From Alphaproteobacteria bacterium (GTDB taxonomy: Bacteria; Pseudomonadota; Alphaproteobacteria; RF32; CAG-239), in assembly GCA_017635595.1 (NCBI GenBank), contig JAGBLF010000026.1, positions 3,008 to 67,007 of the forward strand: DNA of 64,000 nucleotides, read 5' to 3'. Positions 18,875 to 60,981 of this stretch are shown here, in pieces. Both the position numbers and the translations under genes were made by a program. A model generated the notes under the pieces. That model was not told where the DNA came from. It saw only the letters and a list, made by a program, of their open reading frames with translations, and searched no databases. Within the stretch, counting starts at the first letter, position 1. Each line of letters opens with the position of its first letter.

Positions 18875-18906
18875 AAATCGCTGTATTTGTGTACGGCGAT
18901 TTTTTT
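18875..18906 (+). terminator. Terminator after the 17843-18829 lipoprotein gene
   Basis: aaatcgc (18875-18881) / gcgattt (18896-18902) followed by a T-run. Confidence 0.55.
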
Positions 18907-18919
18907 GTATAAAATAATT
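18898..18919 (+). promoter_or_regulatory. Conserved 22-nt box, copy 1 (gatttttttgtataaaataatt)
   Basis: 21 of 22 nt identical to 50752-50773. Both copies lie 135-215 nt upstream of the two foreign-composition lipoprotein loci. Confidence 0.35.
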
Positions 18920-19131
18920 GATATTTCAAAAAATATATGCTAAAATGTCTGTGTTCATCTACGAATTATAGACAATTATTTTTGCTATAATTAAGAAAAG
19001 AACTGCTTTATGCGGTTTAATCTTTTCGCAGGTGATTTTTTTGTGATACTCCGGTCAGCTATTGTTGACAAGGATTTTTGCCCAATTTAATCATACATAT
19101 AATCCAGCAAACTATCAAAAACTCTTAGAAT

Positions 19132-34735: not shown

Positions 34736-34825
34736 AAAAGCTGTTGAATACTCGTTTTTTTAGTTTCTGATTCCGCCGTATATTTGGTATTTTGGTGTTA
34801 CAGATAATTTTTAGGTGATAAAGAA

Positions 34826-35944: not shown

Positions 35945-37158
35945 TATTGAGTGAGTTAGCCGCAAAATTACAAAATATAACCAGGTTAAAGTCAGGTATT
36001 CAACGCCTGACTTTAACTGACTTTAGGAATTATAAAAATCTGCGGATTAACGCCGAAATAACGCCTATCATTATTACCGGTGAAAACGGTTCGGGCAAAA
36101 CCAATATTTTAGAGGCCATATCTTTTTTAACACCGGGACGCGGTTTACGCAGTGCCAAACTCAGTGACATCAAACGAATCCGCTCATCTGATGAAGATGA
36201 AAATATTTTGGCCGGTAATGCCTGGACGGTTGCCGCCGATATTTTGAAAAATGACGAAGAGTTTACAGTCGGTACGGCTTTGCAAAAAGTAACACGCGAA
36301 GACACAGAGGATGAAAATCTGCACAGTATCGATCGGCGAATCGTTAAAATTAATCAACAAAAGATTACCCAACAAGCCGAACTCGGAAAATACATATCGG
36401 CAATATGGATTACCCCGCAAATGGATCGTCTCTTTTTAGGCGGCCCTCAGCCGCGCCGCAGTTTTTTAGATCGTCTGGTTTATGCGTTTGATTTAGAACA
36501 CGCCAAGCGCACCGCTAACTTTGAGCATCTGTACCGACAATGGATGCAGCTCATTAAATCAGGCTGTCAGGATAACACTTGGTTACAGTCAATTGAGGCG
36601 GATATGGCGGCTTTAGGTGTTGCGATTGCGGCAGCACGTCGTGAACAAATCGCCCGTTTAAATACGTTTATCACACACGAACCGGATGATATTTTTCCGG
36701 ATGTCCGGTTGGAACTTGCCGGCACGATTGAACAAATGCTGGATGAAAAAGCGGCTATAAAAGTTGAAGATTTTTATAGCGAAAATTTAAGAAAACAACG
36801 GCAAAATGTTTTGTATAATGATAACATCGACGGCGTTAACCGTACAGACTTTAAGGTTTTCTTCAAAAAGAAAAATATGCCGGCCGAACTCTGTTCAACC
36901 GGCGAACAAAAGGCCCTCTTGGTCAGTATTATTTTGGCGCAAACCAAGTGCCAGATTTTGGATAAAGGATTTGCCCCTATTCTTCTGCTTGACGAAGTGA
37001 CAACGCACTTGGATACCCAAAAACGCGATGCTTTACTGACTAAAATAAAGGATCTTAATTTGCAGGCATGGATAACATCTACCGAACCGCAGAATTTTAA
37101 ATTGCTTGAAAATGAGGCTCAATTTTTCCAAATTGAAAACGGCACACTTATTCAATAG
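35941..37158 (+). CDS. recF: DNA replication/repair protein RecF
   Basis: LTDFRNY, Walker A GENGSGKTNILEAI, signature STGEQK, and LLLDEV. TTG start overlaps the dnaN stop (TTGA). Confidence 0.9.
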   Translation: MILSELAAKLQNITRLKSGIQRLTLTDFRNYKNLRINAEITPIIITGENGSGKTNILEAISFLTPGRGLRSAKLSDIKRIRSSDEDENILAGNAWTVAADILKNDEEFTVGTALQKVTREDTEDENLHSIDRRIVKINQQKITQQAELGKYISAIWITPQMDRLFLGGPQPRRSFLDRLVYAFDLEHAKRTANFEHLYRQWMQLIKSGCQDNTWLQSIEADMAALGVAIAAARREQIARLNTFITHEPDDIFPDVRLELAGTIEQMLDEKAAIKVEDFYSENLRKQRQNVLYNDNIDGVNRTDFKVFFKKKNMPAELCSTGEQKALLVSIILAQTKCQILDKGFAPILLLDEVTTHLDTQKRDALLTKIKDLNLQAWITSTEPQNFKLLENEAQFFQIENGTLIQ

Positions 37159-45078: not shown

Positions 45079-48000
45079 TTATTCTCCCATACCTCCTCTT
45101 TTCTTCGGATTAGGCATCGGCCCGGTCTTACCATCTTTAACACCTCTACCTTTATTTGAGGTCTGTCCTGCAACTTTGCCGGTACCGACATCAAATCTGC
45201 CGCTGGACGGACGCTTACCGTATTTATCATCCTGTGAACGACCGGTCGAATTATCGTGCGCTGCCGTTACCCGACCTCTGTCTGCACCATTACTCAAAGC
45301 AAAAGTAACAAACTTAGTAAACTTCTGCAAAGTCATATGGTTGCGCGGTAAGTCTTGACCATTAAATGACAAGTTGGTTTGGAACATATCTTGTCTGGCC
45401 TGAGCTGTTGCCTCTTTACCTTTTTTGGTTTCATGATAACCTTTGGTTTCAGCCAACCGATCAATGGTTGTAGCCAAAGCTTTGTCGTATGTTGCTTTAC
45501 GTTCGGTAATGTAATCGACCAAATTATCTGCCTTTGTCTTACCGGCTTCACGATCGGCTTTAAGTTCTTCCATAACGAGTTTTTTGTAAGCAATTTCTTC
45601 TGCCTGAGTCGGCTCAATACCATAGACGATTTTAAACTCATCGGCCAACAGATTTTTAACATCCATTTCCGGTGGAATGTATTTCTTCTTCGGCTTCGGA
45701 TCCGGTGTCGGCGTCTGGGTCGGAGTCTGGGTCGGTTTTGGCTTAAAGACACTGAATAATCTGTCGGCAATGGCACCGGCACGTTTTCTCATACCGCCGA
45801 ACATACCTTTAACCGGTTCCCAATAACCTGCCCCCCATAACTTATGACCCTGAACAATGTCACCCGGAATATTTTCACCAGGTACCGTCGTTACATGTGT
45901 TCCTGCACTCCAACCGGCTTCAGCATCAGCATTATACGACTGTACCGGACTGGCATTAGGACCTGTACCGAATAATGTAAGTTTACCGGCATGATTAAAT
46001 AACGAACCATCCGCCCTTGGCGCATCATCAATTTGTCCACCAACGACATTTTCAATTTTGCCCAACATATCGGCAAGACCCGCCGGATTGGATGATTTTC
46101 CGGTTGATACAATTTCTCTTAAAGCATCCATATAGTTCATTGTAGAACCATCAGGTGCCTTAAATGATAAGTAATCACCGACTGTCGTTCCGGCCGGCAG
46201 ATGATGTGCTGCCGCAAATGCAGGGTCAACCGGTGCATTCGGGTTCGGAGCCAAGTAGGCCAATTGCTCAAACTTATATCCCAACATATCGGTATTCATA
46301 ACAAAGCTAGGATTTTTCGGGTCATTAGCAATATCAGTAAAAAATGCCTTATCATCACCGGTTGCATGAATGGCACTTTCAATACCGGCTCGTAAATTTG
46401 TTACCGCATCGGCAGATACTTTATTCGGATCTGCACTATCTTGCAAATCATGAGCAACATGGAACTTATTTAAGAATTCACTGTATCTCGGATCATCAAG
46501 ACGATTGGTTGCATGTGCTCTCTCTGTTTCGGAATAGTCATGTGAAGTCGGTCCGGCTTTTTCTTGATCCGGCGTACTCGTACCATCTTTTTGATAAGAA
46601 GGTGTTACACCCAGCAACGAGCCGACATAGCTACCGGCAGCCCCACCAAGAGCGATAGCCGAACCTTTCTTAACCGCTTGCCAAAAAGCTTTACCCGCGG
46701 ATAAGCCATGCGCCTTGGCATCTTTATACGTACCATAACCGGCTACAAGCAAACAGCCGACGCCTAACGCTGTTGCTGCCGGAATATTACCGGTCATCAA
46801 ACAAGCACCAGCGGCAAATCCGAGTGCAGAAGCTGTATTTGTTGTTGCATACGGTTGTTTGAAGCAAAATTCCTTAAATTTCGGTTTCTGACCGGCAGCT
46901 TTGGCCTCTTTCTTATAGTTTTGGTAATTCATATACACACCGACAGCAGCCATCGCCATACTGGTTACACCGGCAACATAAGGTAAAGCAGCCGTTACCG
47001 CAGCTGCCGGAGTCGCACTGGTCAAACCTAATGCACAAGCAGCTTTAACGCCACCGACAGTCACACCGTAAGTTGCCAATTTTTGTCCCAAGCTGGCGGC
47101 AAATGTCCATCCTGCTGTTTTCAACCAATTTACGTTGAACTCACCATCATTACCGAAACGAGTTGCAGCACGCGGATCATACTTGGCAATCGGCTGATGC
47201 ATCCGTTTTAACATATCATCTTTAGGGCCGGAAACTTTACTGATTCGGCTGATTGCGCCCATCGTATCGTTCACCGACAATTTGATTGCTGCATCAGCGC
47301 CTTGTTTTGAGATATTCAGCGGACGATTCGGATCCATCATACGTGTTTTGAATTCTTCTAAGAATTTCGGATCCGTATAGCGGTCATGTCTTTCGATAGC
47401 CTTTCTGACATTATTTTCGGCACCGTCCCAAGCAAAAGCCTGCATTTTAACTCTGTTAGCAAATTCCGTTTGTAAATCATCATCCGATAATGATTTAACG
47501 TCTGCGGCAACATGCGAAATGATTGTATTGTTGCGAGCCAAATCGACCATGGCTTCCAGTTGGCTACCCGGCTTGATTTCAAAACCTTTCTGCCATGTTA
47601 CGGATTCTTCGTTGGTTTCCGGATTTATAAATTGCGGAATGGCAATTTCTTCTTTGCAGTATTTATCCAACAGTGCATCAATATCGCCGTTCCCGATCAT
47701 ATCATCTTTCGGTAAATGATCCGACAGATATTGGCTGAATTCCGGTGTACGACGAATTTCTTCTTTTTCCTCCGGAGAAAATTCGTGCGTTTCATCATGG
47801 AATCTGATATTGCCGAGGAATTGCATGGTTTCATCATCTAATGTGATGTTTGCCATTCTCTTGGTTAAAGTTGTATGATTTTCACGAACCTGACCAATAT
47901 TATCTTTGGTAATATTTTCTATTCCCCAGTATTTATCATACTCCTTGATATCCGAATCTAATTTCGCGGATACGGCATCAATTTTTTGTTGTTGAGCCTC

Positions 48001-49431
48001 TTCAACATCCGGACGGCGTTTTTCAATCATTTCTTTGTAACCGTCATACACATCCGACATGTTGGTATTATCATCATAATTAAAGTAGTCACGGGTAATG
48101 TTACTTACACCTGTATAATACTGGTCGGTCAAAAAATCCATTTGAGCGCCAACGGCATCTCTTTTAGCCTGAAACGCATTTTTGGTTTCTTCATCCTTAG
48201 CTTTGGCAACTTGCTCACCGTAAACATCATAAGCTTGTGTTAAAACCGTCGGTGGAACAGAGCTGATCTTACCGGTTTCAAGCAAATGATCCATCATTGT
48301 GACGTTGAATTCTTCAATTTCTTTATCATCCAAAGATGAAATTGTTGATTGAACCGTGGCGTAAACAAGGTTTTCATCTTTCAACTGTTCTTCGGTCAGC
48401 TGTTTTTTTATTTTGCCTAAAGCATTCAAAGTATCATAACTCAGCATGTCAATGTTTGCATCATTAGCATCTGAATTCGGTGTTCTGAAGCGGCCAAAGA
48501 AGTCTTCCTCTTCTTGTTCATTTTCTTGACCGCCGCCGTTATCATTGCCGCCATTTCCGCCGTTGCCGCCATTTCCGCCGTTGCCGCCGTTATCTCTATC
48601 ATCGGTATTATCTCTGTTATTTTCATCATCGTTCGACAACATACCGATGGTTAGGGAGTCATTTTCTAGCGATTGAACACCCATAAGGTCGCTTAAGGCT
48701 TTATATTGTTCACGGAACGAATCGCTGATTTGGTAAACATCACTGCCGTAAATCTGATCATCCTTACTGTTTAAGGTAGCATCCAAATGGCTTTCAATTT
48801 CATCTTTTTCTTCAGGATGAGCGACAATATATGCATTTTTATTTCTAATAAATTCTTCAATTTCTTCTTTAGGAGCTTCGCCATATTGGTTATCGGCAAG
48901 TCTTAAAAAGTCTTCATATACAGCATCTTTATTATTAAATTTTGTTTGGACTTCAGTTTTTTTGTTATCTTTTTCTTCAGTCTCTTTGGCTGCTTTAGCT
49001 TTTTCTTCTTCCTCTATTTCACGAGCCAGGGATTCATCATGTCTTTTCTCGATATCTTCTGCTGTCACACCGCGTTCGGCCGCCGTTCTCTGAGCAATTC
49101 TTGCAAAGATTTCCTGCTCTACGGTTAGTTTATCAAAGTCTTTTCCCCAATAGGCATGAGCGAAACTGTTTAACGACTCTTTATAGGTTTCAGAATACTC
49201 TTCCGCGTTTAAAATGTTGTCTAATTCTTCTTCTGACAAATCCCCTTTTTCGCTTCGAAACATCCAATACGCAGCCATAGAATCGATAAACGCTACATTG
49301 TCTTTCGAACCTTCAGGATCTCGCTCTATGATACTCACGTGTTTTCCGAATTTATTCCGCACATATTCCTCGAACTCTTGTCTGAATTCCCCGTTACCAT
49401 CAAGCACATTTCCCTTTGTATACTTAGCCAT
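45079..49431 (-). CDS. Giant leaderless protein with central hydrophobic/glycine-zipper block (effector-like)
   Basis: 1450 aa with no signal peptide. Acidic coiled N-terminal part, (GGN)5 tract, hydrophobic Gly/Ala-rich block encoded at about 46600-47125, PTQTPTQTPTPDPKPKKK linker, and a basic Gly-rich tail ending KKRGGMGE. Confidence 0.85.
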   Translation of the reverse strand: MAKYTKGNVLDGNGEFRQEFEEYVRNKFGKHVSIIERDPEGSKDNVAFIDSMAAYWMFRSEKGDLSEEELDNILNAEEYSETYKESLNSFAHAYWGKDFDKLTVEQEIFARIAQRTAAERGVTAEDIEKRHDESLAREIEEEEKAKAAKETEEKDNKKTEVQTKFNNKDAVYEDFLRLADNQYGEAPKEEIEEFIRNKNAYIVAHPEEKDEIESHLDATLNSKDDQIYGSDVYQISDSFREQYKALSDLMGVQSLENDSLTIGMLSNDDENNRDNTDDRDNGGNGGNGGNGGNGGNDNGGGQENEQEEEDFFGRFRTPNSDANDANIDMLSYDTLNALGKIKKQLTEEQLKDENLVYATVQSTISSLDDKEIEEFNVTMMDHLLETGKISSVPPTVLTQAYDVYGEQVAKAKDEETKNAFQAKRDAVGAQMDFLTDQYYTGVSNITRDYFNYDDNTNMSDVYDGYKEMIEKRRPDVEEAQQQKIDAVSAKLDSDIKEYDKYWGIENITKDNIGQVRENHTTLTKRMANITLDDETMQFLGNIRFHDETHEFSPEEKEEIRRTPEFSQYLSDHLPKDDMIGNGDIDALLDKYCKEEIAIPQFINPETNEESVTWQKGFEIKPGSQLEAMVDLARNNTIISHVAADVKSLSDDDLQTEFANRVKMQAFAWDGAENNVRKAIERHDRYTDPKFLEEFKTRMMDPNRPLNISKQGADAAIKLSVNDTMGAISRISKVSGPKDDMLKRMHQPIAKYDPRAATRFGNDGEFNVNWLKTAGWTFAASLGQKLATYGVTVGGVKAACALGLTSATPAAAVTAALPYVAGVTSMAMAAVGVYMNYQNYKKEAKAAGQKPKFKEFCFKQPYATTNTASALGFAAGACLMTGNIPAATALGVGCLLVAGYGTYKDAKAHGLSAGKAFWQAVKKGSAIALGGAAGSYVGSLLGVTPSYQKDGTSTPDQEKAGPTSHDYSETERAHATNRLDDPRYSEFLNKFHVAHDLQDSADPNKVSADAVTNLRAGIESAIHATGDDKAFFTDIANDPKNPSFVMNTDMLGYKFEQLAYLAPNPNAPVDPAFAAAHHLPAGTTVGDYLSFKAPDGSTMNYMDALREIVSTGKSSNPAGLADMLGKIENVVGGQIDDAPRADGSLFNHAGKLTLFGTGPNASPVQSYNADAEAGWSAGTHVTTVPGENIPGDIVQGHKLWGAGYWEPVKGMFGGMRKRAGAIADRLFSVFKPKPTQTPTQTPTPDPKPKKKYIPPEMDVKNLLADEFKIVYGIEPTQAEEIAYKKLVMEELKADREAGKTKADNLVDYITERKATYDKALATTIDRLAETKGYHETKKGKEATAQARQDMFQTNLSFNGQDLPRNHMTLQKFTKFVTFALSNGADRGRVTAAHDNSTGRSQDDKYGKRPSSGRFDVGTGKVAGQTSNKGRGVKDGKTGPMPNPKKRGGMGE

Positions 49432-49785
49432 GACTTTTCTCCTAAAATAGTCTTATAATAATTGCAGTATAAATCATTTTGTCAATTTTTGCAACAATTT
49501 TTTTATAAGTCTAATACGATTTTGTTAACATTCGTTTAACACGTCTAATACACTGCTGTTTAAGACTTTTTTTGGCTTTATCCGTGTCTTTTTTCCCGCT
49601 CAAATTCAAATGGTTACATAATAAAAATTTGACATTTTTTACACAAAAAATTTTTTCATCATCATTTATTGCTTATCTTAAGCCGATTTTCCGTTATTTT
49701 TTTGTTAATTACTGCTAAAGCTTATTGATTTTCTTAGTTTTTTATCGTACACAACAACATAACGTCGTATTGTAGAATTGTACTT

Positions 49786-50688
49786 ATGAAAAATAAACTT
49801 CTTTTATTGATTATATGTTTTTTTGTCTGTGAAGTGTCAGTTATTTTCTGTTTTATCAACCATACACGGCAGGTTGATGAAAAAAAGATAGAAATTTATG
49901 TAGCTTATCATAAAAACTCTCCTTTGTATCAAACGGATATATTAATTCCTATCCAAGGCGGGCGAGCACTCCATTCCTCGCAAGGAAAAATTCTTGAAAA
50001 CATAATGATAGGCGATGATACCGGTGACAATATATCTTATTTAAATGACAGATACTCCGAATTAACGGTTTTATATTGGATTTGGAAAAACTCAAAAGCC
50101 GATTATGTCGGATTGATGCATTATCGGCGTTTTCTAAATCTGGCTCACAATGACCGACAATTTATTAATCGTGATAAATTTTTATATTATGGATTTACCT
50201 CGCAGCACATTGCCAAACTTATGCAAAATGCAGATATAGTTATAGCCCGTCCGGAACCTCTGAATGTCGGCAAAAATTTATATGACCACTATGCACATCA
50301 TCACTTTAAACAGGATCTTGATACCATTATTTATTATGCCAAACAGAATGATATGAAAATCGGACAGGCACTTGATTACTATTTACATCATGCCAACAGA
50401 TACAATCCGCGCAACATCTTTATAGCAAAAAAAGAAGTTATCGATGCATATTGCGAATGGCTGTTTGATATTTTAGCCAGAGCCGATAACCGACTAAAAA
50501 AGAATCATCTGTCAGAGGATAATAGCTATAAATGGTCACCGCGAAAATGGGACTATCAAAAGCGTTCTCCGGGTTTTATTGCGGAAAGATTATTTTCTTT
50601 CTGGGCGCATTTTAACAAAAACAAATATAGAGTTATCGAAAAGCCTTTTATCTTGCTGGATACAAACAGTAATTTAATATATATTTAA
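49786..50688 (+). CDS. DUF4422-like putative glycosyltransferase
   Basis: YSELTVLYWIWKN ... YVGLMHYRRF is the hallmark I associate with DUF4422. Markedly AT-rich compared with neighbours. Confidence 0.65.
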   Translation: MKNKLLLLIICFFVCEVSVIFCFINHTRQVDEKKIEIYVAYHKNSPLYQTDILIPIQGGRALHSSQGKILENIMIGDDTGDNISYLNDRYSELTVLYWIWKNSKADYVGLMHYRRFLNLAHNDRQFINRDKFLYYGFTSQHIAKLMQNADIVIARPEPLNVGKNLYDHYAHHHFKQDLDTIIYYAKQNDMKIGQALDYYLHHANRYNPRNIFIAKKEVIDAYCEWLFDILARADNRLKKNHLSEDNSYKWSPRKWDYQKRSPGFIAERLFSFWAHFNKNKYRVIEKPFILLDTNSNLIYI

Positions 50689-50751
50689 CACGGTATTCGG
50701 CCGCTTCTGCTCTTTAAAATCGATTTTTTATTTTTATGACAAAAAATACTT

Positions 50752-50773
50752 GATTTTTTTGTACAAAATAATT
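50752..50773 (+). promoter_or_regulatory. Conserved 22-nt box, copy 2 (gatttttttgtacaaaataatt)
   Basis: 21 of 22 nt identical to 18898-18919. Lies 137 nt upstream of the 50910 lipoprotein gene. Confidence 0.35.
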
Positions 50774-50909
50774 ACAATACACTCTATCAAAAAGTAATTT
50801 AAATAGCTATGATGCCTACTATTGTTCAAAAGTATAAAAGCTTTTTCATAAAGTTTTATTGTGAGCGTCATAACAAATTCAATCGTTAAATTTTCAAAAT
50901 TACCAATAT

Positions 50910-51500
50910 ATGAAAAACAGATTTTTGTTGGGAATATTTGCGACGATAGTCGGAATATTCACGCTTACGTCCTGCGACAAGGATGAGTACTTAAAAGCTG
51001 AACCTCAGCCGTATTTCTTTAAGATTGTGGATAAAAGCCACATCAACCTCTATGACCAATACGATATTCTATACGAAGAGGGTCGAGAGGCTGAGTTCAA
51101 AATCTCCCCGCAATTCACTATTAATCGATGGAGCACGCAAGCATTGGCTCCCATTGATGGAGAGCAGTTGAACCAAGAAATCGACCCTATAGACGTCAGG
51201 AGGTCAGATGGCTCATTCATCGTTGAAGTAAAATTCAACTTGTTTGAGAACCGGCTCAAAATCTCCGGCCTTAACATAGAGGGGACGGATGCCCAGGGAG
51301 AGAAGTTCTATGTATTTTGCCTTGATGAAGTTTACCTGCAAGGCGAAATCGAAATCGAGGAAGAACGCGCTTCTCCGTTTCTCCAAGAGGGAAAAATTCA
51401 TTATAAACTGGTAAAAGTCAGCAGGAAAGATTCCTTGGTGTTGGCTGAAGCCGACCAGGAGTTTATCATCTTTGATGACCCTGATGATCTTGGATTCTAA
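50910..51500 (+). CDS. Small lipoprotein, Bacteroidota-like
   Basis: Lipobox LTSC (Cys22) followed by DKDE. No SD. AAG/GAG/CTC/CCC codon usage like the 1311-aa gene. Lies 14 nt upstream of the barrel gene. Confidence 0.75.
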   Translation: MKNRFLLGIFATIVGIFTLTSCDKDEYLKAEPQPYFFKIVDKSHINLYDQYDILYEEGREAEFKISPQFTINRWSTQALAPIDGEQLNQEIDPIDVRRSDGSFIVEVKFNLFENRLKISGLNIEGTDAQGEKFYVFCLDEVYLQGEIEIEEERASPFLQEGKIHYKLVKVSRKDSLVLAEADQEFIIFDDPDDLGF

Positions 51501-51514
51501 AAAAAATAAACATT

Positions 51515-53203
51515 ATGAAAAAGATAATATTTATGCTGTTAGCTGTGGCAGCAATATCCGCGCAGGCGCAAACCTGTAAGGTATCTGCCACCAAAAACAA
51601 CGGTAAAATAATCCAGATTTCAGTAAATTTGGATTCTCTTAAGGGTAAAACCTTAGTCACAACAATCAGCCAAAAAAAGAGCGATGTCGTTCTTAACATG
51701 GCTTATGAAGGTGATAATACTGATTCTATTGCCGTTGTTGCTCGTGAAGACAGTAGCGAGGCAGCAGACACGTTGGCTACAACCGGTGCGTTAGCTAAAG
51801 CTGATACGTTAGCCGAAGCTGATACGTTGGGACTGGACTCTTTGACGACGTCCGATGCGGAAGTTTCCGAATCCGCAACAGGTGGAAGCACCTCTATTCT
51901 GGGAACGGCACTAAACATTATAGGACTTGGCGGTCTTGTTTCAGGTTCTCAGAGTGCCCAGTACGAAGAATACGCCGCAAAAGCTTTAACGGAGATAACT
52001 ATGGTCGACTCGACCAAATATATTCCCCAATACAAGCAAAGAAAGTGGAAATGGTTGAGAAAGTACAAGTCTTATTCAACCTTAGAACTTTCAGGTATCT
52101 TCGGTAAAGACTTCGGAGATAATGAGGACAAAGGAGAAGAGGATATTGATGCCGAAGACTACGGCATGGACCCCGAGAAGAAATTTAATCTTGGTGGTAG
52201 CGCCAAGTTTTCTCAGGTATTTATCCCCGGTACCTATGCCGAAGACGGCACTTTTAAGCCTAACAGGCTTAACTTCGGATGGTCAATCGGAGCTTTGTTT
52301 GCTGTTGACGTCCAGAAAAATTACGGATGGTCAACAGACTTCATGGCAAAGGTTGGCATCCAGGCCGGTAACGGATTGACACTCGGTGTCGATGCCTTGG
52401 TCGGTGGTGGTACAACGCCTTATGCTATCTACTCGTCCGATGGTATTAACTATCGCTCGGTATTGCATAATCAGTTGTGTTTCAAATACGGCGTACAAGT
52501 TTGGGTATCTTCCAACTTTGGCAGTAACACCTATACCGCTCTGTTTGCAAGATTGGTCAGAAGTGTTGCGCCTAATTCGGTGTATGAGCATCCGACGGCC
52601 CAATTTTGGGAGAACGAGCTCATCGATTTCGATGAAGGCAGTTGGCAAGTCGGAATCGCAGTCGGATACAAGTTCGGTTATAACCCGGATTTGCAATCTA
52701 AGAGACTGCAGGCTACCTTGTCCAGCGGCTATTCCCTCACCGGCCACGATAAGGCCATGTTGAGAGTGGAATTGGAGAAAATCAACCAGATTTCTCCAAA
52801 ACTTGATTTCTCATATGGTCTGGGCTTCGGTCAGACATTGGGAGAAGAGCGTCTGAAGCATCTGACCATCAACGGTGGATGGTTTTACCGTCTCAAGCCT
52901 ACACACAAATTCGGCTATATTGCAAAAGTATATGCCGGTTTCGGTGAATTTATGATCACCAAGAATTTGTGCTCTGAAGATGGTGAGTTTGAAATGTCTC
53001 ACACTGTCAGAAAGCTTGGCTTGATGGGTGGTACCAACCTTGGTGTCGGTTTCCGATTCAAGTGCAGTACTATATCTGCTACAATGCGAATCGGGTATCA
53101 TTATTGTTTCTCTCCCGAATACAATGGATACGAAACAAATATTGACACTGGCCTAAGAGGATGGGATATTGCTCCGATGATAGGATACACTCTAAACTTC
53201 TAA
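51515..53203 (+). CDS. Outer-membrane beta-barrel protein with low-complexity N-terminal region
   Basis: Signal peptide MKKIIFMLLAVAAISAQAQT. Ala/Asp/Thr-rich region with three ADTL repeats. About 400 aa of alternating amphipathic strands ending GYTLNF (terminal Phe). Confidence 0.8.
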   Translation: MKKIIFMLLAVAAISAQAQTCKVSATKNNGKIIQISVNLDSLKGKTLVTTISQKKSDVVLNMAYEGDNTDSIAVVAREDSSEAADTLATTGALAKADTLAEADTLGLDSLTTSDAEVSESATGGSTSILGTALNIIGLGGLVSGSQSAQYEEYAAKALTEITMVDSTKYIPQYKQRKWKWLRKYKSYSTLELSGIFGKDFGDNEDKGEEDIDAEDYGMDPEKKFNLGGSAKFSQVFIPGTYAEDGTFKPNRLNFGWSIGALFAVDVQKNYGWSTDFMAKVGIQAGNGLTLGVDALVGGGTTPYAIYSSDGINYRSVLHNQLCFKYGVQVWVSSNFGSNTYTALFARLVRSVAPNSVYEHPTAQFWENELIDFDEGSWQVGIAVGYKFGYNPDLQSKRLQATLSSGYSLTGHDKAMLRVELEKINQISPKLDFSYGLGFGQTLGEERLKHLTINGGWFYRLKPTHKFGYIAKVYAGFGEFMITKNLCSEDGEFEMSHTVRKLGLMGGTNLGVGFRFKCSTISATMRIGYHYCFSPEYNGYETNIDTGLRGWDIAPMIGYTLNF

Positions 53204-53208
53204 CTAAA

Positions 53209-53249
53209 AGAGGCAAACACTGTAACAAGTGCTTGCCTCTTTGGTTTTT
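53209..53249 (+). terminator. Terminator after the barrel gene
   Basis: agaggcaa (53209-53216) / ttgcctct (53233-53240) with an inner cact/agtg pair, followed by ttggttttt. Confidence 0.65.
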
Positions 53250-53299
53250 AAATATGGAAGTTTCCTTAAAAATCCAATCTTCTTACGCTGCTTATGGAT

Positions 53300-55825
53300 T
53301 TAAAAGTACTTCCAAGTAATTGAACAAGTGTCTTGTCCTTCACAATTACAAGCCTCCACCGCCGTATTGATTTGCATCGGTACACTCATTTTCGAACCGT
53401 CAACACAAGCGATTACTCTGTCTGAAAAAATTAATGCCGAACCGCTGCAAGGTGTCATACCGTCACGAACTAAATCCTTGTCTTCTTTGTTGGCTTTGGT
53501 CAAAGAATAACCATATACCCCTATACCGACAAATCCGTCGGCGGAAGATCCCCAATCATCCGTTGCCATAGTCACACAGGCTTCTCTCGATAAACCGGAA
53601 AAAGTGACGACAAATGCTTTATCCCCAAGCGGATCTTCCGTACTATCGGAAGACAATTTTGCCGAGCTTATATATACCGGACCGCCCAAGGCATGAACCA
53701 ATGTGCCGCTTTCGGCATCTTTACCCATTTCATCGGGAACAATTCCCATTTTAACGGCCGATACATTATCCAAACCGTTGTAAGACTGCTGTTGGGCATA
53801 CATTGTACGGATATTAGCCGCAAGCATTGTTGCTTGATTAGCGGCCTTATTAATATTATATGCGCTCGAGGCTTTTGAATAACCGGCAACAGCTCCGATT
53901 GTTATCACGCCCAGTACGGGACTGGCGCTTATATCCAGTTTACCTTCTTTTATACGGTGTTGGATTTCCTTAAAATCTTTATTTAATCCGTTCGTAATAT
54001 TATCCACTTCTTCTTTTCCGATAATATTAAGTAATTCTTGTCCGGAAATAATCTTACCATCGGAATAAAAACCATCTTTAGTAGCCTTAAAAACATTAGC
54101 CGGTTTATTATTGCCGTCGTATGTATAGATGCTCAGCTCAAATTTTTCCGGCAGTGCTAAATTTTTATCGTTGATATCTGCACCCGGTCTGATTTTAGCC
54201 ACAGCCGAAGCAATTTTTTTACCTTTATCATTTACTAAAGTAGCATCAGCCGATTCCAGCGAATTAGCCAAATTTGTCGCCAACTTACCCGTTTGTTCCA
54301 GTTGTTCCGATTTCGGTTTTTGAGATTTCATATTTTGTAAAATCGTACTGACTGTTTTTTTGTAACTTTCTGCAAAATTTTCTTTAAATCTGACATTAAA
54401 ATCACCGAGCGGTTTATCCGATAACGGGTAGTTTACCCTAATATTCAAGTGTCGTCCTTTTAACATAAGATTTGCAAATATTTTATCGTTGATATATCCT
54501 TTTGAACTAAATACACCGGAAAAACCATCCGTAAAATTGAAACTTCCGTCAAGTTTGCTCACCGTTTTTCCGTTTATCACGGTTTCCAAATTAGATATGG
54601 TATAATTTCGCAAAAATCCTTTGATGAATTTTATATTATCGTCTTCATTCTGTTTGGAAAAGGCATATTGTACAAATATCGGAATTAATTTCTTCACACC
54701 TTTGTTTGTTATTTTTACCGACATTTTTTCATTATCTGTTTTGTTGGTATATGACAGTTCGTCATTTTCGGCTGTATAAGTCAGCGAAGTATTAATTCTC
54801 TCCACACCTGCCATAGAAGACAAGAATACTTTTGCTTCAGGATGTATTTTTAACAGTTCTTCAATTTTATCGGAATCGGCTTCAGCACTACACTCCAGTT
54901 TTGAATCTTTGACAAAGCCCGGATATTTAAAACCGCCGCTATATGTACAATTTACGTCCGGATGAGTCAATTTAGCCTCAGTTAACTCTATTTTACCGGC
55001 CAACTCTTCAAATGCTTTATAGTCAAATTTGTCATCTTTTGCCTTCTTATAGGCGGCAATAAAGGCATTAGCAGCTTCTTCGTTACCGCCGTTGATATTG
55101 CCGGAAATTTCGATATTTCCTTTTTCATCACCGTACTTTATTTTGATATCTTTATCAGATACGGTAAATTCGGTAGCCGTCATTTCAGTCGGATTATCAA
55201 AATCGGGAGCCTTAATGGAAACAGTAGTTGTATTCTTAAAATCAGGATACTGAAAACCGCCGTTCATATCAAAATCATAATTACCATCATCTTCGGTATA
55301 TCTGAACTTTTCGACTTTTAAGCATTTGGCAAATTGTATAAAATTATCTGTATTTCTTTCATCGGCCAATTTTTGCAGCGCCAAAATAAACGGCTCATCC
55401 GCGCATACTATTTGTCCCGTTAATTTAAAAGAAGAATCATCATTTTTCTTTTGAATTTCAAGTGTTCCGTCATTGGCTGAGATCTTTAAATCGGCAAAGT
55501 CTTTTACATTTTCATCAGCCTGAACTTTCATATCGCCCATAATATTATTATCAAAATATCCGAATTTTATTTCACCCTCACCGAATGTTACCGATGCCGA
55601 ACCGTTTTTCTTGCCTCCGATAACATTATAAGTATGAATAAGTTTTCCTTGTTCGTCATACAATTTTCCGGCACCGTTTTCTTTAAAAAACTTACGTTCG
55701 ACAAAGGTTTTCATTTTCCCGTCGGGATAATACGTGATATTCGGTTGATTACCGTACCAGTAAACAGCACCGGCAGCACCTGCAAGAATTAAAACAAAAG
55801 ATATTACTAAAACATTTTTATTCAT
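53300..55825 (-). CDS. Membrane-anchored protein with MORN/YwqK-like repeats and a type IVb-pilin-like C-terminal domain
   Basis: N-terminal anchor VLVISFVLILAGAAGAVYWY, then YYPDGKMK...GKLYDEQGKL repeats. An internal hydrophobic helix (VLGVITIGAVAGY) is followed by KAANQATMLAANIRTMYAQQQSYNGL ... HALGGPVYI ... KAFVVTFSGLSREACVTMAT, which resembles the TcpA-type pilin core by eye. Confidence 0.8.
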   Translation of the reverse strand: MNKNVLVISFVLILAGAAGAVYWYGNQPNITYYPDGKMKTFVERKFFKENGAGKLYDEQGKLIHTYNVIGGKKNGSASVTFGEGEIKFGYFDNNIMGDMKVQADENVKDFADLKISANDGTLEIQKKNDDSSFKLTGQIVCADEPFILALQKLADERNTDNFIQFAKCLKVEKFRYTEDDGNYDFDMNGGFQYPDFKNTTTVSIKAPDFDNPTEMTATEFTVSDKDIKIKYGDEKGNIEISGNINGGNEEAANAFIAAYKKAKDDKFDYKAFEELAGKIELTEAKLTHPDVNCTYSGGFKYPGFVKDSKLECSAEADSDKIEELLKIHPEAKVFLSSMAGVERINTSLTYTAENDELSYTNKTDNEKMSVKITNKGVKKLIPIFVQYAFSKQNEDDNIKFIKGFLRNYTISNLETVINGKTVSKLDGSFNFTDGFSGVFSSKGYINDKIFANLMLKGRHLNIRVNYPLSDKPLGDFNVRFKENFAESYKKTVSTILQNMKSQKPKSEQLEQTGKLATNLANSLESADATLVNDKGKKIASAVAKIRPGADINDKNLALPEKFELSIYTYDGNNKPANVFKATKDGFYSDGKIISGQELLNIIGKEEVDNITNGLNKDFKEIQHRIKEGKLDISASPVLGVITIGAVAGYSKASSAYNINKAANQATMLAANIRTMYAQQQSYNGLDNVSAVKMGIVPDEMGKDAESGTLVHALGGPVYISSAKLSSDSTEDPLGDKAFVVTFSGLSREACVTMATDDWGSSADGFVGIGVYGYSLTKANKEDKDLVRDGMTPCSGSALIFSDRVIACVDGSKMSVPMQINTAVEACNCEGQDTCSITWKYF

Positions 55826-55940
55826 GATAATTTACTCACTGATAGAAAAATAACAACTAAGGAGAATATATGTAATCATCCGACAAATTGCAACAGAAAA
55901 CTGACAACAAAAAACTTTGATTTGACACCATGAACTGTTT

Positions 55941-56459
55941 CTATAATTTCGGCGTTTTAACTATTTTCAAAAATGACATTTTATCGTCTATTACTGCTTG
56001 TGCACCACGCATAAACGCAAAAAATTCCACGGTTTGTCCGTTATGCAAAAAAATCTGCACGCATAAGCACAAAAACGGATATTTAAGAGGATTTCCGTAG
56101 CAACTGAAATAATCATAACCTTCGATATCCGCCAAAAAAATAATTTCATTTTTGCCGGAAGATTTAACGTGTAAATAAGTGTGTGCTTTATTAATATACA
56201 ATTTCGGTGCACGAAACATATAACATACTATATAGATTACATATCCAGCTGTTGCCAAAAACATTGAAAACAGCACTATTTTTCCTTCAGATGCGTGAAC
56301 TGCCATAAAAAGCAACAAAGAAAGCCCGCTCAAAATTGTCGCAAGCACAATAAAACGCCACCATATTTCACTGTTATCCGGATAAAAAAGCTCTTCTTTT
56401 TCCGCCGTCGCGGATATTGTTTTTTTATCAATCATCTTACTCTCTGCATAGTTTATCAT
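55941..56459 (-). CDS. Hypothetical two-TM membrane protein
   Basis: 172 aa with two adjacent hydrophobic helices followed by a soluble domain. Confidence 0.5.
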   Translation of the reverse strand: MINYAESKMIDKKTISATAEKEELFYPDNSEIWWRFIVLATILSGLSLLLFMAVHASEGKIVLFSMFLATAGYVIYIVCYMFRAPKLYINKAHTYLHVKSSGKNEIIFLADIEGYDYFSCYGNPLKYPFLCLCVQIFLHNGQTVEFFAFMRGAQAVIDDKMSFLKIVKTPKL

Positions 56460-56658
56460 CGGACATTTTTACCGGTGACAGCCGTCATCAATAGTTTTTT
56501 TGATTTTAATGCAACACCCGAGCATTATCAATAAAAAACTTATCGATAAATTCAAATATCCGGCAAGATGCTTTTTTTTACGCTGGACAGAAGAACTTTT
56601 TTTTGCTAACGTTTCTGCAAACTGATGTGTTCGTACTTTTGCAGATCGGAGTAATGTC

Positions 56659-59600
56659 ATGAAGAATGATTTAATAGCCCTAACCGCCTTGTCCTTATGT
56701 TATGCAAATACAAGTTATGCTGTCGATAATTATTTAATCAACGGAGATAATTTTTCTTACAGCTATGATGTTTATCAGGCCGGTGAAGCCTTTGTCTTAG
56801 GCGACGAGTCAAAAATAAGTACTTTTAATATCCCCAACAGCTATTTATCACCGTTGTTTACGGCTTCAAAAAGTTGGGCAAGTGTTATTAACAGTCCGGC
56901 AAATGTAAATCCGGTTACTTATGCGCTTTTATCTGAAAATGAGTATAACGCTTCGGCCGGAAGTCTGTATGTAGATGTTGAAGGAAAGCCATACAGAGTG
57001 ACTATGGTTAATGCCGCAATTAACGGGCTTAAACCGACCGGTCCGAAAGAAATTTTGGAGGCATCATCCGTTGACGGTTTCGTATTTTTAGGTTTGGGTG
57101 TTGAAGAAGACCAACCGGGTTGGGAACCATATTCCGGTCTTCATTCATTATATCACGGTAAATTACCTGACTTACATGTTGTCATGTTACATGAAATTAT
57201 GCACTCTTTGGGTATATCTTCAGCAGCCTCGCAAGTTAATGAAGATCAGGGAGACGAGGCCTACTATTTTACGGAAAAAGGCGGTAATTTATCGGTATTC
57301 GACAAAGACTTGCGAATTTACACCGGTAAAACATCGGCAGTATTTAATCCGGCTTTGGAAATTAAAGCGAAACCCTATATGTCTATCGGTGAAGGCGAAG
57401 ATTTTGACGTTATGACATACGCACCTTATTATGTCGGTGACAACACTTTGAAAGTACTTTCCGGCAAAGCCGATTATAATGATGCCAAACAAGCGATTAT
57501 CGATAACGGCGGTCTGACCAATTATTCCATTTCTTACGGAACGCCGCTTTCCCCTTATCCGCAGGTTTTCGGTTTGCCTATTCATAATGCCGATGATGAC
57601 GAAATTGATTTATCGCATATCGAGCTCAGAAACAGTTTTATGTCGCACCAAAATTACAGAAACTGGATGGTTCCGATGGAAGCGGAATTGGCCGTTTTAA
57701 AAGATATCGGATACGATATAGATTTAAGAAAATATTTCGGTAAATCCTATTATTTAAATGACATAACCGATACTTTCACAACCGGATATTCCGAATGGAA
57801 CGGTAGCGCCTACACAGGTGCTTTCAGCAATGTAGCACAAGGTGTCGGCTTACATATATACGGCGACCGCAACAATATTACCCAAGATTCGGATATAGCG
57901 ACTTCCGGTGAAGGTGCTATCGGTGCCAGAATAGACGGTGTTAAAAACAAATACACTCTCGCCGACGGCAACTCAATTCAGACCAGCGGTAAAGAGAATT
58001 TGGGTATTGCCGTCACATGGGGACAAGATCATATTATTAATGTCGAACAAAATACGTCCGTAATTGCCAACGGTGAAAACGGTAAAGCCGTCAGCTTTGA
58101 CTTCGGTGCTAATTTATTCGGCAGCCTTGATACCGCAAAAGGTTCGTACATAAATTATGATTCCGATTTCGGGTATAACAAAACACCGGGGGCCGAGACA
58201 TCTTCGGCGCTGGTTGATACCTTCAACGTTGCCGGAATACTGCAGGGCTCCAAAGCTGCTATTTATATCTCGGATAACGCCCATGTCAGAAATATCAACA
58301 TTCATGCCGGCGCGCAAATAACCGGTGACATTATATCCGAGTGGAACTCCGTTCAGTCCGGTCAAAAAGCCAAAGTCCAGAGATATAACGGTTCTTACTG
58401 GGTACCGGTTAATCCTTATGACGAAAGCCAGATTTATTACACAAACATCAATGTTTACTCGGCTTTCAACGGTGTTATTAACGGCAATATCGTCGGTGAT
58501 AGCGAAGTGTATAACACCTTAAAATTGAACAACCTCGGTAATTTGACTATTGCCGGTGACACCATTGACGTTGCCGCACTCGACAACAGCGGTGTTCTTA
58601 ATGTCTATGATGCCGATTTAACCGTTCAGAGCGGTGAAATTACCGGCGGCGGCACATTGAACGTTAATCAAAAACTGGCGGTTGATTCCGATTTAGCAAC
58701 CATCGACAATACCGTTAATCTGGCAACCGCTTCATTGTTCTCTGCCATGAACGGCGGCGTTCAGAATATCGAATTCTACAAGTTAAACGCCGATGATGCC
58801 AAAATATCCTTTGATGTCGGCGATACCTTCCTTTTGGCTAATGCTTCATCGGCCGATACGGCAAGCATTGCTCAGCTTAAAACCGATGAAGAAATCGCTG
58901 TACAGTTGCGTGACGGAACTCAGATTGAATTGTTTGCCTCGGATAATACTTTAGATTTAGGCACATCATCAGCTAATATTTATTATGGCGGCAATAAGTA
59001 TACATTAACACAAAATACGAGTAATATGCGTATGTTAGACATTAATCTCACGGCAACCGATGTCGAACTGGGTGATGCCGTTGCCGATGAAACAGCCTCA
59101 AATTATATCGTCACTGAAGCTAAACTGAACAAAGATGCCGGAACGGTTCATGGTGATGATTTTGAAATAAGCGGAGACAGCATTGATGTTAACGGCCATA
59201 AAGGTTTGGTGATCGATGGCTTGCTGAATGCCAACGGCACAAAATTGAAAACGGATATTTTCGGCGCTTCCGACAGCGATTTAACGCTGGTCAACGGCGG
59301 CAAATTACTGGTTGATGCCGCACAAAAGAGCATCACTTTGGGCCAAAAAGGCGAGAACGCTCTCCAAATAAATAACGGTGAAGCTATACTTTATGCCGAA
59401 AATGATGATATTTATGTCGGCGGCGATGTCAAAGGTACGGATAATCAAACCGATACGTTAACTTTGACCGGCGGCAATATTGCTTTGAATAACGTTCAAA
59501 ATGTCAAGATTGATATAAATAATGCCAATACCCACTTAAACGGTATGTCTGTCAACGGTATATGGCAGGCCGACAATGGTGTTTTAACGGTTAAAAAAGA

Positions 59601-60981
59601 AGCTTATCTGTCGTCAGACGGTTCAAATCAGTTGATTGCCGACGGCGGTGCCGTTAGTTTGGTTAATAACGAAACCGGCGATATAACTTTATCGAAATTA
59701 ACCTTAAACAAAACACTGGAAACAGCATTGGATGTCGATTTTGTTAATCTTGAAGCAGACCGTTTTGTATTTGCCGACAGCTCCGACTTAGAGACAAATA
59801 ACAACTCTGTTACCATTTCGAAAATGAATTTACTGAATTCGGATGTTATTCTTTCGGCTCCGAAATATGCCGTTCCGTTTGTGGGTGCGGAATATAACAG
59901 TGAAGATTTGATAAACAGTGTTGTTTTGAATGTTGATACCGATACGCTCGTATCACCTATTTTCAACTATCAATTAGGTTATCAAAAAGACGAAAACACC
60001 GGAAGTATTGTTTTAAGCCGCGGTCCGGCTTCGGATTACAAGAGCTACAATTCTTCCGTTTTAGCCGCACCTGTTGCCGCTCAAACCGGTAATTATTTAG
60101 CGCAATTAAGCATTTACGATAAAGTTTTCGGCGGCATAGATACTCTGATGCTACCTGTTAAGCAAAACAATGCCGCACGCGGAATTTCTTCAGGAGACAG
60201 ACCGATATCCTTCAACATCGGCACGGTTTGGTTTAACCCGTCATACACGCATGAAAGGGTTGATTTAAAGAAAGGTCCGAATGTTAAAAACAAAATGTAC
60301 AATGCATTGGCCGGTCGTGATTCCGGTATTCTTTCCGCCAACGGTTGGAACTATCAATATTCGGTTTATGCCGGATACGACGGTTCGCAGCAACGTTATA
60401 GCGGTAATTCGATACACCAAAACGGCGGTATTGTCGGTGTAACCGGTGCCTGGTACAAAAATAATTTCTTTACAGCCTTAACGGCCGATGCCGGTATGAG
60501 TTTTGCCAAAGCACGCACTATGTACGGCAGTGAAAAATTCAAAACCGTCAATGCCGGTATTGCCTCTAAGAGCGGATATAACTGGTTGTTTGCGGACGGC
60601 AGATTTATCATTCAGCCGAATTACACGATGAGCTACACCTACGTTAAAACGCTGAAGTACAAAAACGCCGGCGGCGTTCATATTAAGCCGGATCCGTTGC
60701 ACGCCATCAACATCGCACCGGGTATTAAAACCGTTTATAACTTTGCCAACGGTTTCAAGCCTTATGCTCAGGCATCTATGGTTTGGAATTTAATGGATAA
60801 AACCAAGTTTAAGGCTCAAGATGTTAAAATGCCGGAAATGAGTGTTAAACCTTATGTTAAATATGGTTTAGGTTTGCAAAAAGACTGGTGCACAAAAGTT
60901 TCGGCCTTTGGTGAAGTTATGCGCCTTGACGGCGGTCGAGAAGGTTTTGATTTCTCAGCCGGCTTCAAATGGACATTCTGA
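56659..60981 (+). CDS. Autotransporter with zincin (HExxH) passenger
   Basis: GGAG RBS and signal peptide ...CYANTSYA. HEIMH at 57190-57204. Long beta-helix-like Gly/Asn/Asp-rich passenger. C-terminal barrel ending FSAGFKWTF. Confidence 0.9.
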   Translation: MKNDLIALTALSLCYANTSYAVDNYLINGDNFSYSYDVYQAGEAFVLGDESKISTFNIPNSYLSPLFTASKSWASVINSPANVNPVTYALLSENEYNASAGSLYVDVEGKPYRVTMVNAAINGLKPTGPKEILEASSVDGFVFLGLGVEEDQPGWEPYSGLHSLYHGKLPDLHVVMLHEIMHSLGISSAASQVNEDQGDEAYYFTEKGGNLSVFDKDLRIYTGKTSAVFNPALEIKAKPYMSIGEGEDFDVMTYAPYYVGDNTLKVLSGKADYNDAKQAIIDNGGLTNYSISYGTPLSPYPQVFGLPIHNADDDEIDLSHIELRNSFMSHQNYRNWMVPMEAELAVLKDIGYDIDLRKYFGKSYYLNDITDTFTTGYSEWNGSAYTGAFSNVAQGVGLHIYGDRNNITQDSDIATSGEGAIGARIDGVKNKYTLADGNSIQTSGKENLGIAVTWGQDHIINVEQNTSVIANGENGKAVSFDFGANLFGSLDTAKGSYINYDSDFGYNKTPGAETSSALVDTFNVAGILQGSKAAIYISDNAHVRNINIHAGAQITGDIISEWNSVQSGQKAKVQRYNGSYWVPVNPYDESQIYYTNINVYSAFNGVINGNIVGDSEVYNTLKLNNLGNLTIAGDTIDVAALDNSGVLNVYDADLTVQSGEITGGGTLNVNQKLAVDSDLATIDNTVNLATASLFSAMNGGVQNIEFYKLNADDAKISFDVGDTFLLANASSADTASIAQLKTDEEIAVQLRDGTQIELFASDNTLDLGTSSANIYYGGNKYTLTQNTSNMRMLDINLTATDVELGDAVADETASNYIVTEAKLNKDAGTVHGDDFEISGDSIDVNGHKGLVIDGLLNANGTKLKTDIFGASDSDLTLVNGGKLLVDAAQKSITLGQKGENALQINNGEAILYAENDDIYVGGDVKGTDNQTDTLTLTGGNIALNNVQNVKIDINNANTHLNGMSVNGIWQADNGVLTVKKEAYLSSDGSNQLIADGGAVSLVNNETGDITLSKLTLNKTLETALDVDFVNLEADRFVFADSSDLETNNNSVTISKMNLLNSDVILSAPKYAVPFVGAEYNSEDLINSVVLNVDTDTLVSPIFNYQLGYQKDENTGSIVLSRGPASDYKSYNSSVLAAPVAAQTGNYLAQLSIYDKVFGGIDTLMLPVKQNNAARGISSGDRPISFNIGTVWFNPSYTHERVDLKKGPNVKNKMYNALAGRDSGILSANGWNYQYSVYAGYDGSQQRYSGNSIHQNGGIVGVTGAWYKNNFFTALTADAGMSFAKARTMYGSEKFKTVNAGIASKSGYNWLFADGRFIIQPNYTMSYTYVKTLKYKNAGGVHIKPDPLHAINIAPGIKTVYNFANGFKPYAQASMVWNLMDKTKFKAQDVKMPEMSVKPYVKYGLGLQKDWCTKVSAFGEVMRLDGGREGFDFSAGFKWTF

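Follow-up and report, generated by a model that had tools for sequence, protein, structure and literature searches.

Do two adjacent genes, encoding a small lipoprotein and a predicted outer-membrane beta-barrel protein, act as a module of their own, or do they serve a much larger lipoprotein encoded elsewhere on the same chromosome? The question is raised by a 64,000-nucleotide (nt) stretch of contig JAGBLF010000026.1 from the Alphaproteobacteria bacterium assembly GCA_017635595.1 (hereafter, the window), in which a gene for a 196-amino-acid (aa) lipoprotein is followed directly by a gene for a 562-aa barrel protein, and which also contains a gene for a 1311-aa lipoprotein (hereafter, the giant). 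An initial annotation had read the three genes as a surface system of foreign, Bacteroidota-like origin, in which the barrel anchors or exports the giant. Our analysis reveals that the pair is a strict, self-contained two-gene cassette. The pair may be an outer-membrane module peculiar to its lineage, whose barrel would hold or export the cognate lipoprotein at the cell surface, following a logic like that of Slam, a reading that we consider quite possible and hold tentatively.

The lipoprotein gene precedes the barrel gene in the window and in nine of nine independent related loci, comprising eight genome records (L002–L009) and one metagenomic locus (L012, with a short duplicate, L013), and the spacing between the two genes ranges from a gap of 4–17 nt to an overlap of 4 nt (14 nt, positions 51501–51514, in the window). 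The genes that flank the pair vary from locus to locus, and the non-coding block upstream of the pair stays conserved. Comparison with L003, which is syntenic with the window, shows 65% identity for the barrel and 41% identity for the lipoprotein versus 84–90% identity for the flanking genes, indicating that the pair is diverging much faster than its neighbours, as expected of exposed envelope proteins. The proposal in the initial annotation that lipoprotein and barrel form a conserved partner module is borne out by these loci, and its description of the pair (coordinates of the open reading frames (ORFs), 14-nt gap, LTSC-DKDE lipobox, AISAQAQT signal, three ADTL repeats, and terminal Phe) was confirmed throughout.

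The small lipoprotein begins MKNRFLLGIFATIVGIFTLTS↓CDKDEY (arrow, cleavage site), a signal of the signal peptidase II type with lipobox IFTLTS↓C, and continues after this motif with a variable middle part and a beta-rich C-terminal half. The mature N-terminus, C-D-K-D-E-Y, exactly matches C-X-K-(D/E)2-X, the optimal lipoprotein export signal (LES) of Capnocytophaga, which is sufficient for surface localisation (Lauber et al. 2016, PMC5080379); the Bacteroides (SDDDD) and Flavobacterium (SDDFE) variants of the export signal are functional too (PMC5080379). The earlier identification of a Bacteroidota-type export signal on this protein is therefore supported at the level of sequence. No element of the mature protein is better conserved than C-(D/E)-K-D, which 12 of 13 aligned homologues possess; specifically, conservation across the homologues falls on Lys +3 and Asp +4, and several of them have Glu at +2. 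Housekeeping lipoproteins of the window lack the acidic motif (C-A-N-L in an NlpD-like protein, and C-G-T-M in the product of 17843–18829). An AlphaFold2 model of the lipoprotein has a predicted local distance difference test (pLDDT) value of 48.8, which is low confidence, and shows 6–7 C-terminal strands; a Foldseek search with this low-confidence model returned nothing at E ≤ 0.001 (best, 0.14).

The barrel protein begins MKKIIFMLLAVAAISAQA↓QTCK, with a signal peptide ending in AISAQA↓QT, and finishes GYTLNF, an aromatic C-terminal signal that we count in favour of the barrel fold. The Cys at residue 21 is replaced in three homologues and thus does not belong to a lipobox. Downstream of the signal peptide, the AlphaFold2 model comprises four parts: a small N-terminal domain with four short strands at low pLDDT; an acidic linker, which is disordered in the model, varies in length in the alignment, and carries ADTL at residues 84–87, 96–99, and 102–105; a pre-barrel segment with helices at residues 139–142, 147–162, and 179–183, predicted at low confidence; and a barrel of ~16 long strands joined on either side by short loops, predicted from a 40-sequence alignment with pLDDT of 70–90 over most of its length. 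The motif DSTKYIPQYKQRKWKWL of the pre-barrel segment is nearly invariant across the barrel alignment, and mean conservation is 0.77 in the first half of the barrel domain and 0.65 in the second half. A hidden Markov model (HMM) of the N-terminal domain, searched against all ORFs of the collected loci, matched long-form barrels alone. We favour what appears to be a single ~16-strand barrel over two tandem 8-strand barrels, because relatives of ~390 aa span the junction.

As had been supposed, all three proteins fall outside the described families. Neither product of the pair matched Pfam (E ≤ 0.01) or NCBIfam, a PDB-sequence profile search gave no matches at E ≤ 1, and the giant likewise matched nothing in Pfam, NCBIfam, or the PDB-sequence profile search. 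Foldseek with the barrel model returned generic barrels alone (porins, OmpG, FadL, LamB, and OmpM1), at template modelling (TM) scores of 0.09–0.29. Legionella_OMP appeared below threshold in 6 of 40 alignment members (best E 2.4e-4), and the one such alignment inspected covers 45 residues and scores 12.9 bits versus a cutoff of 25.4; the distant relative P0047 scores 17.8 bits against OMP_b-brl, under the cutoff of 28.7. Searches of Pfam with the distant barrel relatives and the 40 alignment members yielded sub-threshold noise alone. Membership of the porin, OMP_b-brl, or Legionella_OMP families was therefore rejected, no score attaining a gathering threshold. An autotransporter (type V) assignment was also rejected, given the absence of a Pfam hit, ~16 strands rather than 12, and the appearance of EstA and EspP only as generic Foldseek hits at TM ≤ 0.21.

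A word search found 41 relatives of the barrel, and a profile search of 1.84 billion representative proteins found just 59, which occur in a long, a short, and a small form. The long form (~580 aa) is again preceded by a lipoprotein of ~198 aa; the short form (~390–410 aa) is without the N-terminal extension and spans roughly strands 3–16; and the small form (~300 aa) stops at the equivalent of strand 8. A lipoprotein gene lies upstream of the barrel in three of three short-form loci. In particular, short barrels of 388–413 aa are directly downstream of large repeat lipoproteins in L010 (5539–9167), L014 (2948–7242), and L016 (2–3514). These large lipoproteins, of 813, 970, and >691 aa, respectively, are related to one another; those with complete N-termini carry C-x-K (C-Q-K-W and C-S-K-F), and that of L014 also uses the G-ending codon dialect described below. 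Homology of the small lipoprotein to the large lipoprotein of L010 appears weak (HMM E 8e-8 in a small database, to which the signal peptide and lipobox may contribute; hhalign 6.6%). Since the lipoproteins beside these barrels differ so much in length, a fixed enzyme complex would fit less well than recognition of a lipidated N-terminus that they have in common. The organism names attached to proteins of this wider family are solely Alphaproteobacteria or plain 'bacterium', and every genomic context examined looks proteobacterial. The cassette defines two or three new protein families, restricted to a host-associated lineage of uncultured Alphaproteobacteria.

In the reading that we prefer, the mature N-terminus C-D-K-D-E would act as a sorting signal. 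The lipoprotein would be acylated and carried to the outer membrane; the cognate barrel, itself exported by Sec through its signal peptidase I signal and presenting its N-terminal domain to the periplasm on the flexible acidic linker, would receive it there; and the barrel would then either pass the lipoprotein to the cell surface or retain it there as a bound cap. The gene pair, its co-inheritance, the signal peptides, the barrel fold, the conserved motif, and the lack of a known family are shown; that the two proteins form a complex, that they are exposed, and which way transport runs is inferred. Four points weigh against this reading. The C-(D/E)-K-D match may be convergent or coincidental, because the signal is defined only in Bacteroidota and the barrel is without a Bacteroidota homologue. 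Conservation of the barrel is high along its whole length, and long variable loops on the outside are missing, a pattern not usually seen in exposed proteins. The lipoprotein model cannot be relied on at its pLDDT. Finally, the one ~300-aa relative examined, in L011, stands alone, with no lipoprotein gene upstream.

The barrel could instead be a porin-like channel for diffusion or uptake, TonB-independent, with the lipoprotein as its substrate-binding or plug subunit (compare TbpA/TbpB, BtuB/BtuG, and SusC/SusD). A barrel of ~16 strands is porin-sized, porins, OmpG, FadL, and LamB are among its Foldseek hits, the faint Legionella_OMP signal in six homologues points the same way, and the helical pre-barrel segment could serve as a plug. 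The TM scores are nevertheless far down the scale and no porin model of Pfam reaches threshold; the short loops leave no constriction loop of the kind typical of porins; and the partner lipoproteins, which range from 183 to 970 aa and have little similarity, are hard to square with one substrate. We regard a channel of this kind as rather unlikely.

A trans-envelope tether, in which the lipoprotein is kept in the inner membrane and contacts the N-terminal domain of the barrel across the periplasm, seems improbable to us. Asp at +2 is the inner-membrane retention signal of enterobacteria under the Lol rules, the N-terminal domain is highly conserved, consistent with contact to a periplasmic protein, and the proportions of the partners are suggestive: long barrels, whose N-terminal domain and linker span ~165 aa, accompany small lipoproteins, and short barrels without this extension accompany lipoproteins of 800–970 aa. 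Against this, Lol-avoidance rules are not conserved beyond Enterobacteriaceae, and the positions conserved in the small lipoproteins are Lys +3 and Asp +4, the pattern of the export signal rather than Asp at +2. Moreover, several homologues have Glu at +2, the large lipoproteins of L010 and L014 have Gln or Ser there, and members of the giant family have Gln, Thr, or Ser, so that retention by Asp +2 fits less well.

Any role for the giant turns in part on a codon dialect that it shares with the pair, in which AAG, GAG, CAG, and CCT/CCC are preferred over AAA, GAA, CAA, and CCG. Measured as the correlation of per-gene vectors of synonymous-codon deviation, the similarity is 0.62 for giant and barrel, 0.50 for barrel and lipoprotein, and 0.33 for giant and lipoprotein, versus ≤0.09 with the giant for 40 of 41 other window genes tested; the common codon bias that had been noticed is thus real and specific. 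The exception, 7965–8786 (minus strand; correlations of 0.53, 0.41, and 0.33 with the giant and the pair), is the sole other window gene sharing the dialect, and encodes a 273-aa protein with two apparent tandem halves of ~135 aa, no signal peptide, no Pfam or NCBIfam family, and no Shine-Dalgarno (SD) sequence. The dialect runs opposite to average and to highly expressed host genes. High-expression codon bias was rejected as its cause, enolase and an abundant-type 8-strand outer-membrane protein preferring the opposite codons. Giant homologues that are 36–46% identical, in L017 (syntenic with the giant of the window) and in L019 (a different context), have AAG fractions of 0.87–0.96 versus 0.24–0.36 in their flanks, and the pair shows a milder dialect in most loci compared. 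Recent horizontal transfer was rejected as a cause as well, the dialect being present in distant syntenic orthologues too; its persistence where synonymous sites are saturated indicates that it is maintained by a selective or mechanistic cause and is not a fading scar of transfer. The dialect affects Lys, Glu, and Gln, the three amino acids whose split codon boxes are read by xm5s2U34 tRNAs.

The SD-less starts reported for the three genes were likewise confirmed: an SD sequence is absent before the giant, barrel, and lipoprotein genes. By reading, an SD was seen at 0 of 29 listed starts of lipoprotein, barrel, and giant homologues, and all of their leaders are A/T-rich. Within the window, three genes out of three carry no statistical significance, as the same regular expression finds no SD before 31 of 53 ORFs; SD-lessness as a window-level anomaly was therefore rejected, and the feature is meaningful family-wide alone.

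The giant itself has the lipobox AGILTS↓CQEDE and four repeats of ~180 aa, and its family keeps the lipobox with acidic residues at +3 to +5 (C-T-Q-E-E, C-T-D-E-G, and C-Q-E-D-E; Gln, Thr, or Ser at +2). A lipobox with an acidic motif is thus common to both lipoprotein families, which, together with the dialect, the SD-less leaders, and the pairing of short barrels with large lipoproteins elsewhere, speaks for the three-gene, Bacteroidota-derived system of the initial annotation. A further point on its side is an upstream match: the top hit of the 221-nt region upstream of the pair, in a scan of the whole window on both strands, is GATTTTTTTGTATAAAATAATTGA, which agrees with 50752–50775 at 23 of 24 nt and lies upstream of the giant. 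Two close relatives have kept this element, with its 5′ part forming the T-tail of the preceding gene's terminator, and a motif of its type was not seen upstream of distant giant orthologues.

Three-gene dependence nonetheless finds little room in the distribution of the genes. Among 28 further giant loci, all from outside the window (5 with flanks of 4–6 kb, and 23 metagenomic with flanks of up to 10 kb; ~235 kb in total), we found neither a small-lipoprotein homologue nor a barrel of any of the three forms; reciprocally, no giant homologue lies within 10 kb of the pair in L002–L009. The constant neighbour of the giant is instead the 17843–18829 family, found directly upstream of it in most of 16 loci compared. 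The slot of the giant (dnaB, epimerase, terC, 183-aa gene, giant) is the same in genomes whose DnaB is 76% identical, and the dialect is undiminished in distant orthologues, which contradicts recent import. No Bacteroidota homologue of any of the families was found, and those of the pair and of the giant occur just in contigs named, or looking, alphaproteobacterial, so the foreign origin that had been proposed is not supported. Homology of the giant to the barrel-adjacent large lipoproteins was rejected (best BLASTP E 1.9; hhalign 0.6% and 0.9%). An anchor or exporter role of the barrel for the giant is accordingly distinctly unlikely, as is a three-gene system around it. The giant is probably an envelope lipoprotein of the class to which that of the pair belongs, and its dependence on the barrel is not supported.

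Three side observations concern the surroundings of the giant. The product of 17843–18829 (plus strand) is a 328-aa lipoprotein (LSLVS↓CGTMW) with a Lys-rich C-terminus, no Pfam family, host-like codons, and an SD, and its homologues upstream of giant genes are 328–571 aa long. Many relatives (L017, L027–L029, L032, L034, and L035) have two giant paralogues, of ~750 and ~1286 aa, and the window has the single 1311-aa copy. Between the paralogues lie a 305-aa gene, an SNase gene, and a member of the 17843–18829 family.

A broader form of the preferred reading would have a Bacteroidota-type LES operate outside Bacteroidota, in previously unknown cassettes of a gut and rumen alphaproteobacterial lineage, with each barrel as translocon for the lipoprotein encoded upstream, and the surface genes, including the giant, as an expression class maintained by selection and marked by SD-less leaders and G-ending Lys, Glu, and Gln codons. 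We think this doubtful.

Export or anchoring of a surface glycan (lipopolysaccharide or capsule) by the pair, in the manner of other barrel-lipoprotein pairs for polysaccharide export, is very improbable: a DUF4422 gene in the window, a Pfam-confirmed glycosyltransferase in L012, glycosyltransferase-like genes in L006 and L008 (judged by their N-termini), and a cluster resembling nucleotide-sugar biosynthesis in L003 are set against the small number of such contexts and their interdependence (L006 and L008 are syntenic, and L012 has thrS in common), no obvious glycan genes among the listed ORFs of L002, L004, L005, and L007, no Pfam match to polysaccharide export families, and the absence of the DUF4422 gene from syntenic L003.

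The region upstream of the pair contains three elements (Table 1). The promoter-like sequence, with the palindrome within its spacer, is a candidate promoter or operator; 7 of 10 pair loci have a palindrome-like element 147–164 nt before the start codon of the lipoprotein gene. The block ATGATG-N3-ATTATT is present in one copy ~100 nt before the lipoprotein ATG in every pair locus; the copy in L004 has a 1-nt insertion, visible in the alignment and missed by the pattern search. The conserved leader gave no Rfam match and no consensus RNA structure. A conserved upstream ORF in the leader was ruled out, frames and lengths varying between the loci in the alignment. A sequence resembling the block, ATTATGCTTATTATT, lies ~320 nt before the 1286-aa giant paralogue in L017 (position 11310) and L018 (position 7027), and may hint at a regulator common to both.

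Table 1. Positions in the window of the lipoprotein-barrel pair, its parts and upstream elements, and the giant.
Feature	Position	Strand	Basis or remark
GATTTTTTTGTATAAAATAATTGA, 23/24-nt match to 50752–50775	18898–18921	+	scan of the 221-nt region upstream of the pair
1311-aa lipoprotein	19132–23067	+	signatures common with the pair; a part in the module not supported
Promoter-like TTGATT-17 nt-TACAAT	50750–50778	+	consensus scan
Palindrome TTTTGTACAAAA inside promoter spacer	50757–50768	+	sequence
Upstream block ATGATG-N3-ATTATT, here ATGATGCCTACTATT	50809–50823	+	alignment and pattern search
196-aa lipoprotein gene	50910–51500	+	ORF list
Lipoprotein signal peptide, residues 1–21	50910–50972	+	sequence
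Lipidated Cys22 and LES-like C-D-K-D-E-Y	50973–50990	+	sequence
562-aa barrel gene	51515–53203	+	ORF list
Signal peptide, residues 1–18, signal peptidase I type, cleavage AQA↓Q	51515–51568	+	sequence; (A/V)QA↓Q kept in alignment
Small conserved N-terminal beta domain, residues 19–65	51569–51709	+	mean column conservation 0.71
Hypervariable acidic Ala/Asp/Thr/Glu linker, residues 66–135, three ADTL	51710–51919	+	mean conservation 0.39
Helical basic/aromatic pre-barrel segment, residues 136–183, contains DSTKYIPQYKQRKWKWL	51920–52063	+	AlphaFold2 model
Beta-barrel domain, residues 184–562, ends YTLNF then stop	52064–53203	+	AlphaFold2 model

The window (GC ~41%) is chromosomal, and its genes include dnaA-dnaN-recF, dnaB, sufBCD, rlmN, enolase, and secD and secF as separate genes; the dnaA-dnaN-recF cluster, at 33311–37158, indicates that it spans the region of the chromosomal replication origin. 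Megablast of 49500–56500 against plasmids and Escherichia coli genomes gave zero matches, indicating that this segment is neither a known mobile element nor enterobacterial DNA. The barrel gene is present in eight public genome records, all metagenome-assembled genomes from rumen or gut and named Alphaproteobacteria, Rhodospirillaceae, or proteobacterium. These names, the synteny with L003, and the AGGAG-type ribosome-binding sites that precede many host genes identify the host as a proteobacterium and not a member of Bacteroidota or Enterobacteriaceae.

The DUF4422 gene (49786–50688, plus strand) has a GC of 0.34, well under its surroundings, and its absence from the otherwise syntenic L003 indicates an insertion or deletion between the gene for a 1450-aa protein and the pair. 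Convergent to the barrel gene, 53300–55825 (minus strand) encodes an 841-aa protein with an N-terminal membrane helix, also missing in L003, whose C-terminal residues 652–772 match the type IVb pilins Bundlin and PilS above Pfam thresholds. Pfam and NCBIfam gave no family for the large proteins encoded at 45079–49431 (minus strand, 1450 aa), 56659–60981 (plus strand, 1440 aa), and 61195–63147 (minus strand, 650 aa); the first has an 84%-identical, longer homologue (1678 aa) beside the pair in L003.

Comparison with known systems places the pair among barrels with a dedicated lipoprotein, a kind of system already known, made here of new protein families. LptD/LptE resembles it in that a barrel is paired with a lipoprotein of ~190 aa, and differs in that no LptD/OstA or LptE hit was obtained in Pfam, the barrel falls well short of the 26 strands of LptD, and the genes of the pair are adjacent, unlike lptD and lptE. 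Porins and peptidoglycan-tethered porins (Legionella MOMP and OmpM) share the porin-sized barrel and the N-terminal extension on a linker, and both OmpM1 and Legionella_OMP figure among the faint signals described above; all matches are, however, sub-threshold, no TM score exceeds 0.29, and the protein has neither an SLH nor an OmpA-like domain. Were the pair a conventional porin accompanied by an accessory lipoprotein, its description would amount to routine annotation of a lineage-specific outer-membrane protein.

The likeness to Bacteroidota LES lipoproteins lies in the fit of C-D-K-D-E-Y to C-X-K-(D/E)2-X, in the resemblance of C-Q-E-D-E of the giant to the Q-A-(D/E)2 variant, in SD-less, A/T-rich leaders, and in Gln at +1 of the barrel as a signal peptidase I substrate. 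The differences are an alphaproteobacterial host in which SD sites are in use and secD is a gene apart from secF, and families for which no Bacteroidota homologues were found. The route by which LES lipoproteins cross the Bacteroidota outer membrane is still unknown (bioRxiv 10.1101/2024.09.13.612696); in spirochaetes (Borrelia), an LptD homologue flips surface lipoproteins, as cited in the same preprint. Surface-lipoprotein export has been solved for few systems, such as Slam and the LptD-like system of Borrelia, and is open for the LES pathway of Bacteroidota, and the cassette couples the motif of that pathway with a dedicated, undescribed barrel in a minimal two-gene proteobacterial setting. 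The export-signal match in a proteobacterium and the persistence of a codon dialect specific to a class of genes are the surprising parts.

Slam (type XI secretion, DUF560; TbpB, HpuA, and fHbp) is like the pair in coupling a barrel gene to a gene with a lipobox, with diverse partners, and in having an N-terminal periplasmic extension on the barrel. About 52% of Slam genes adjoin a lipoprotein gene (PMC5449769); here, the coupling is strict versus about half, the lipoprotein gene being upstream in the window and in all long-form (9/9) and short-form (3/3) loci. The barrel of the window is without DUF560 (Pfam E ≤ 0.01), which is also not among the hits of its 40 homologues at E ≤ 1; neither it nor its homologues have tetratricopeptide repeats, in place of which stand a four-strand mini-domain, an acidic linker, and short helices; and it has ~16 strands versus 14. 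Slam substrates have an 8-strand, TbpB-like C-terminal barrel; the low-confidence model of the lipoprotein of the pair has 6–7 strands in its C-terminal part. The pair is not a member of Slam, and in the preferred reading it would follow a Slam-like logic with unrelated proteins.

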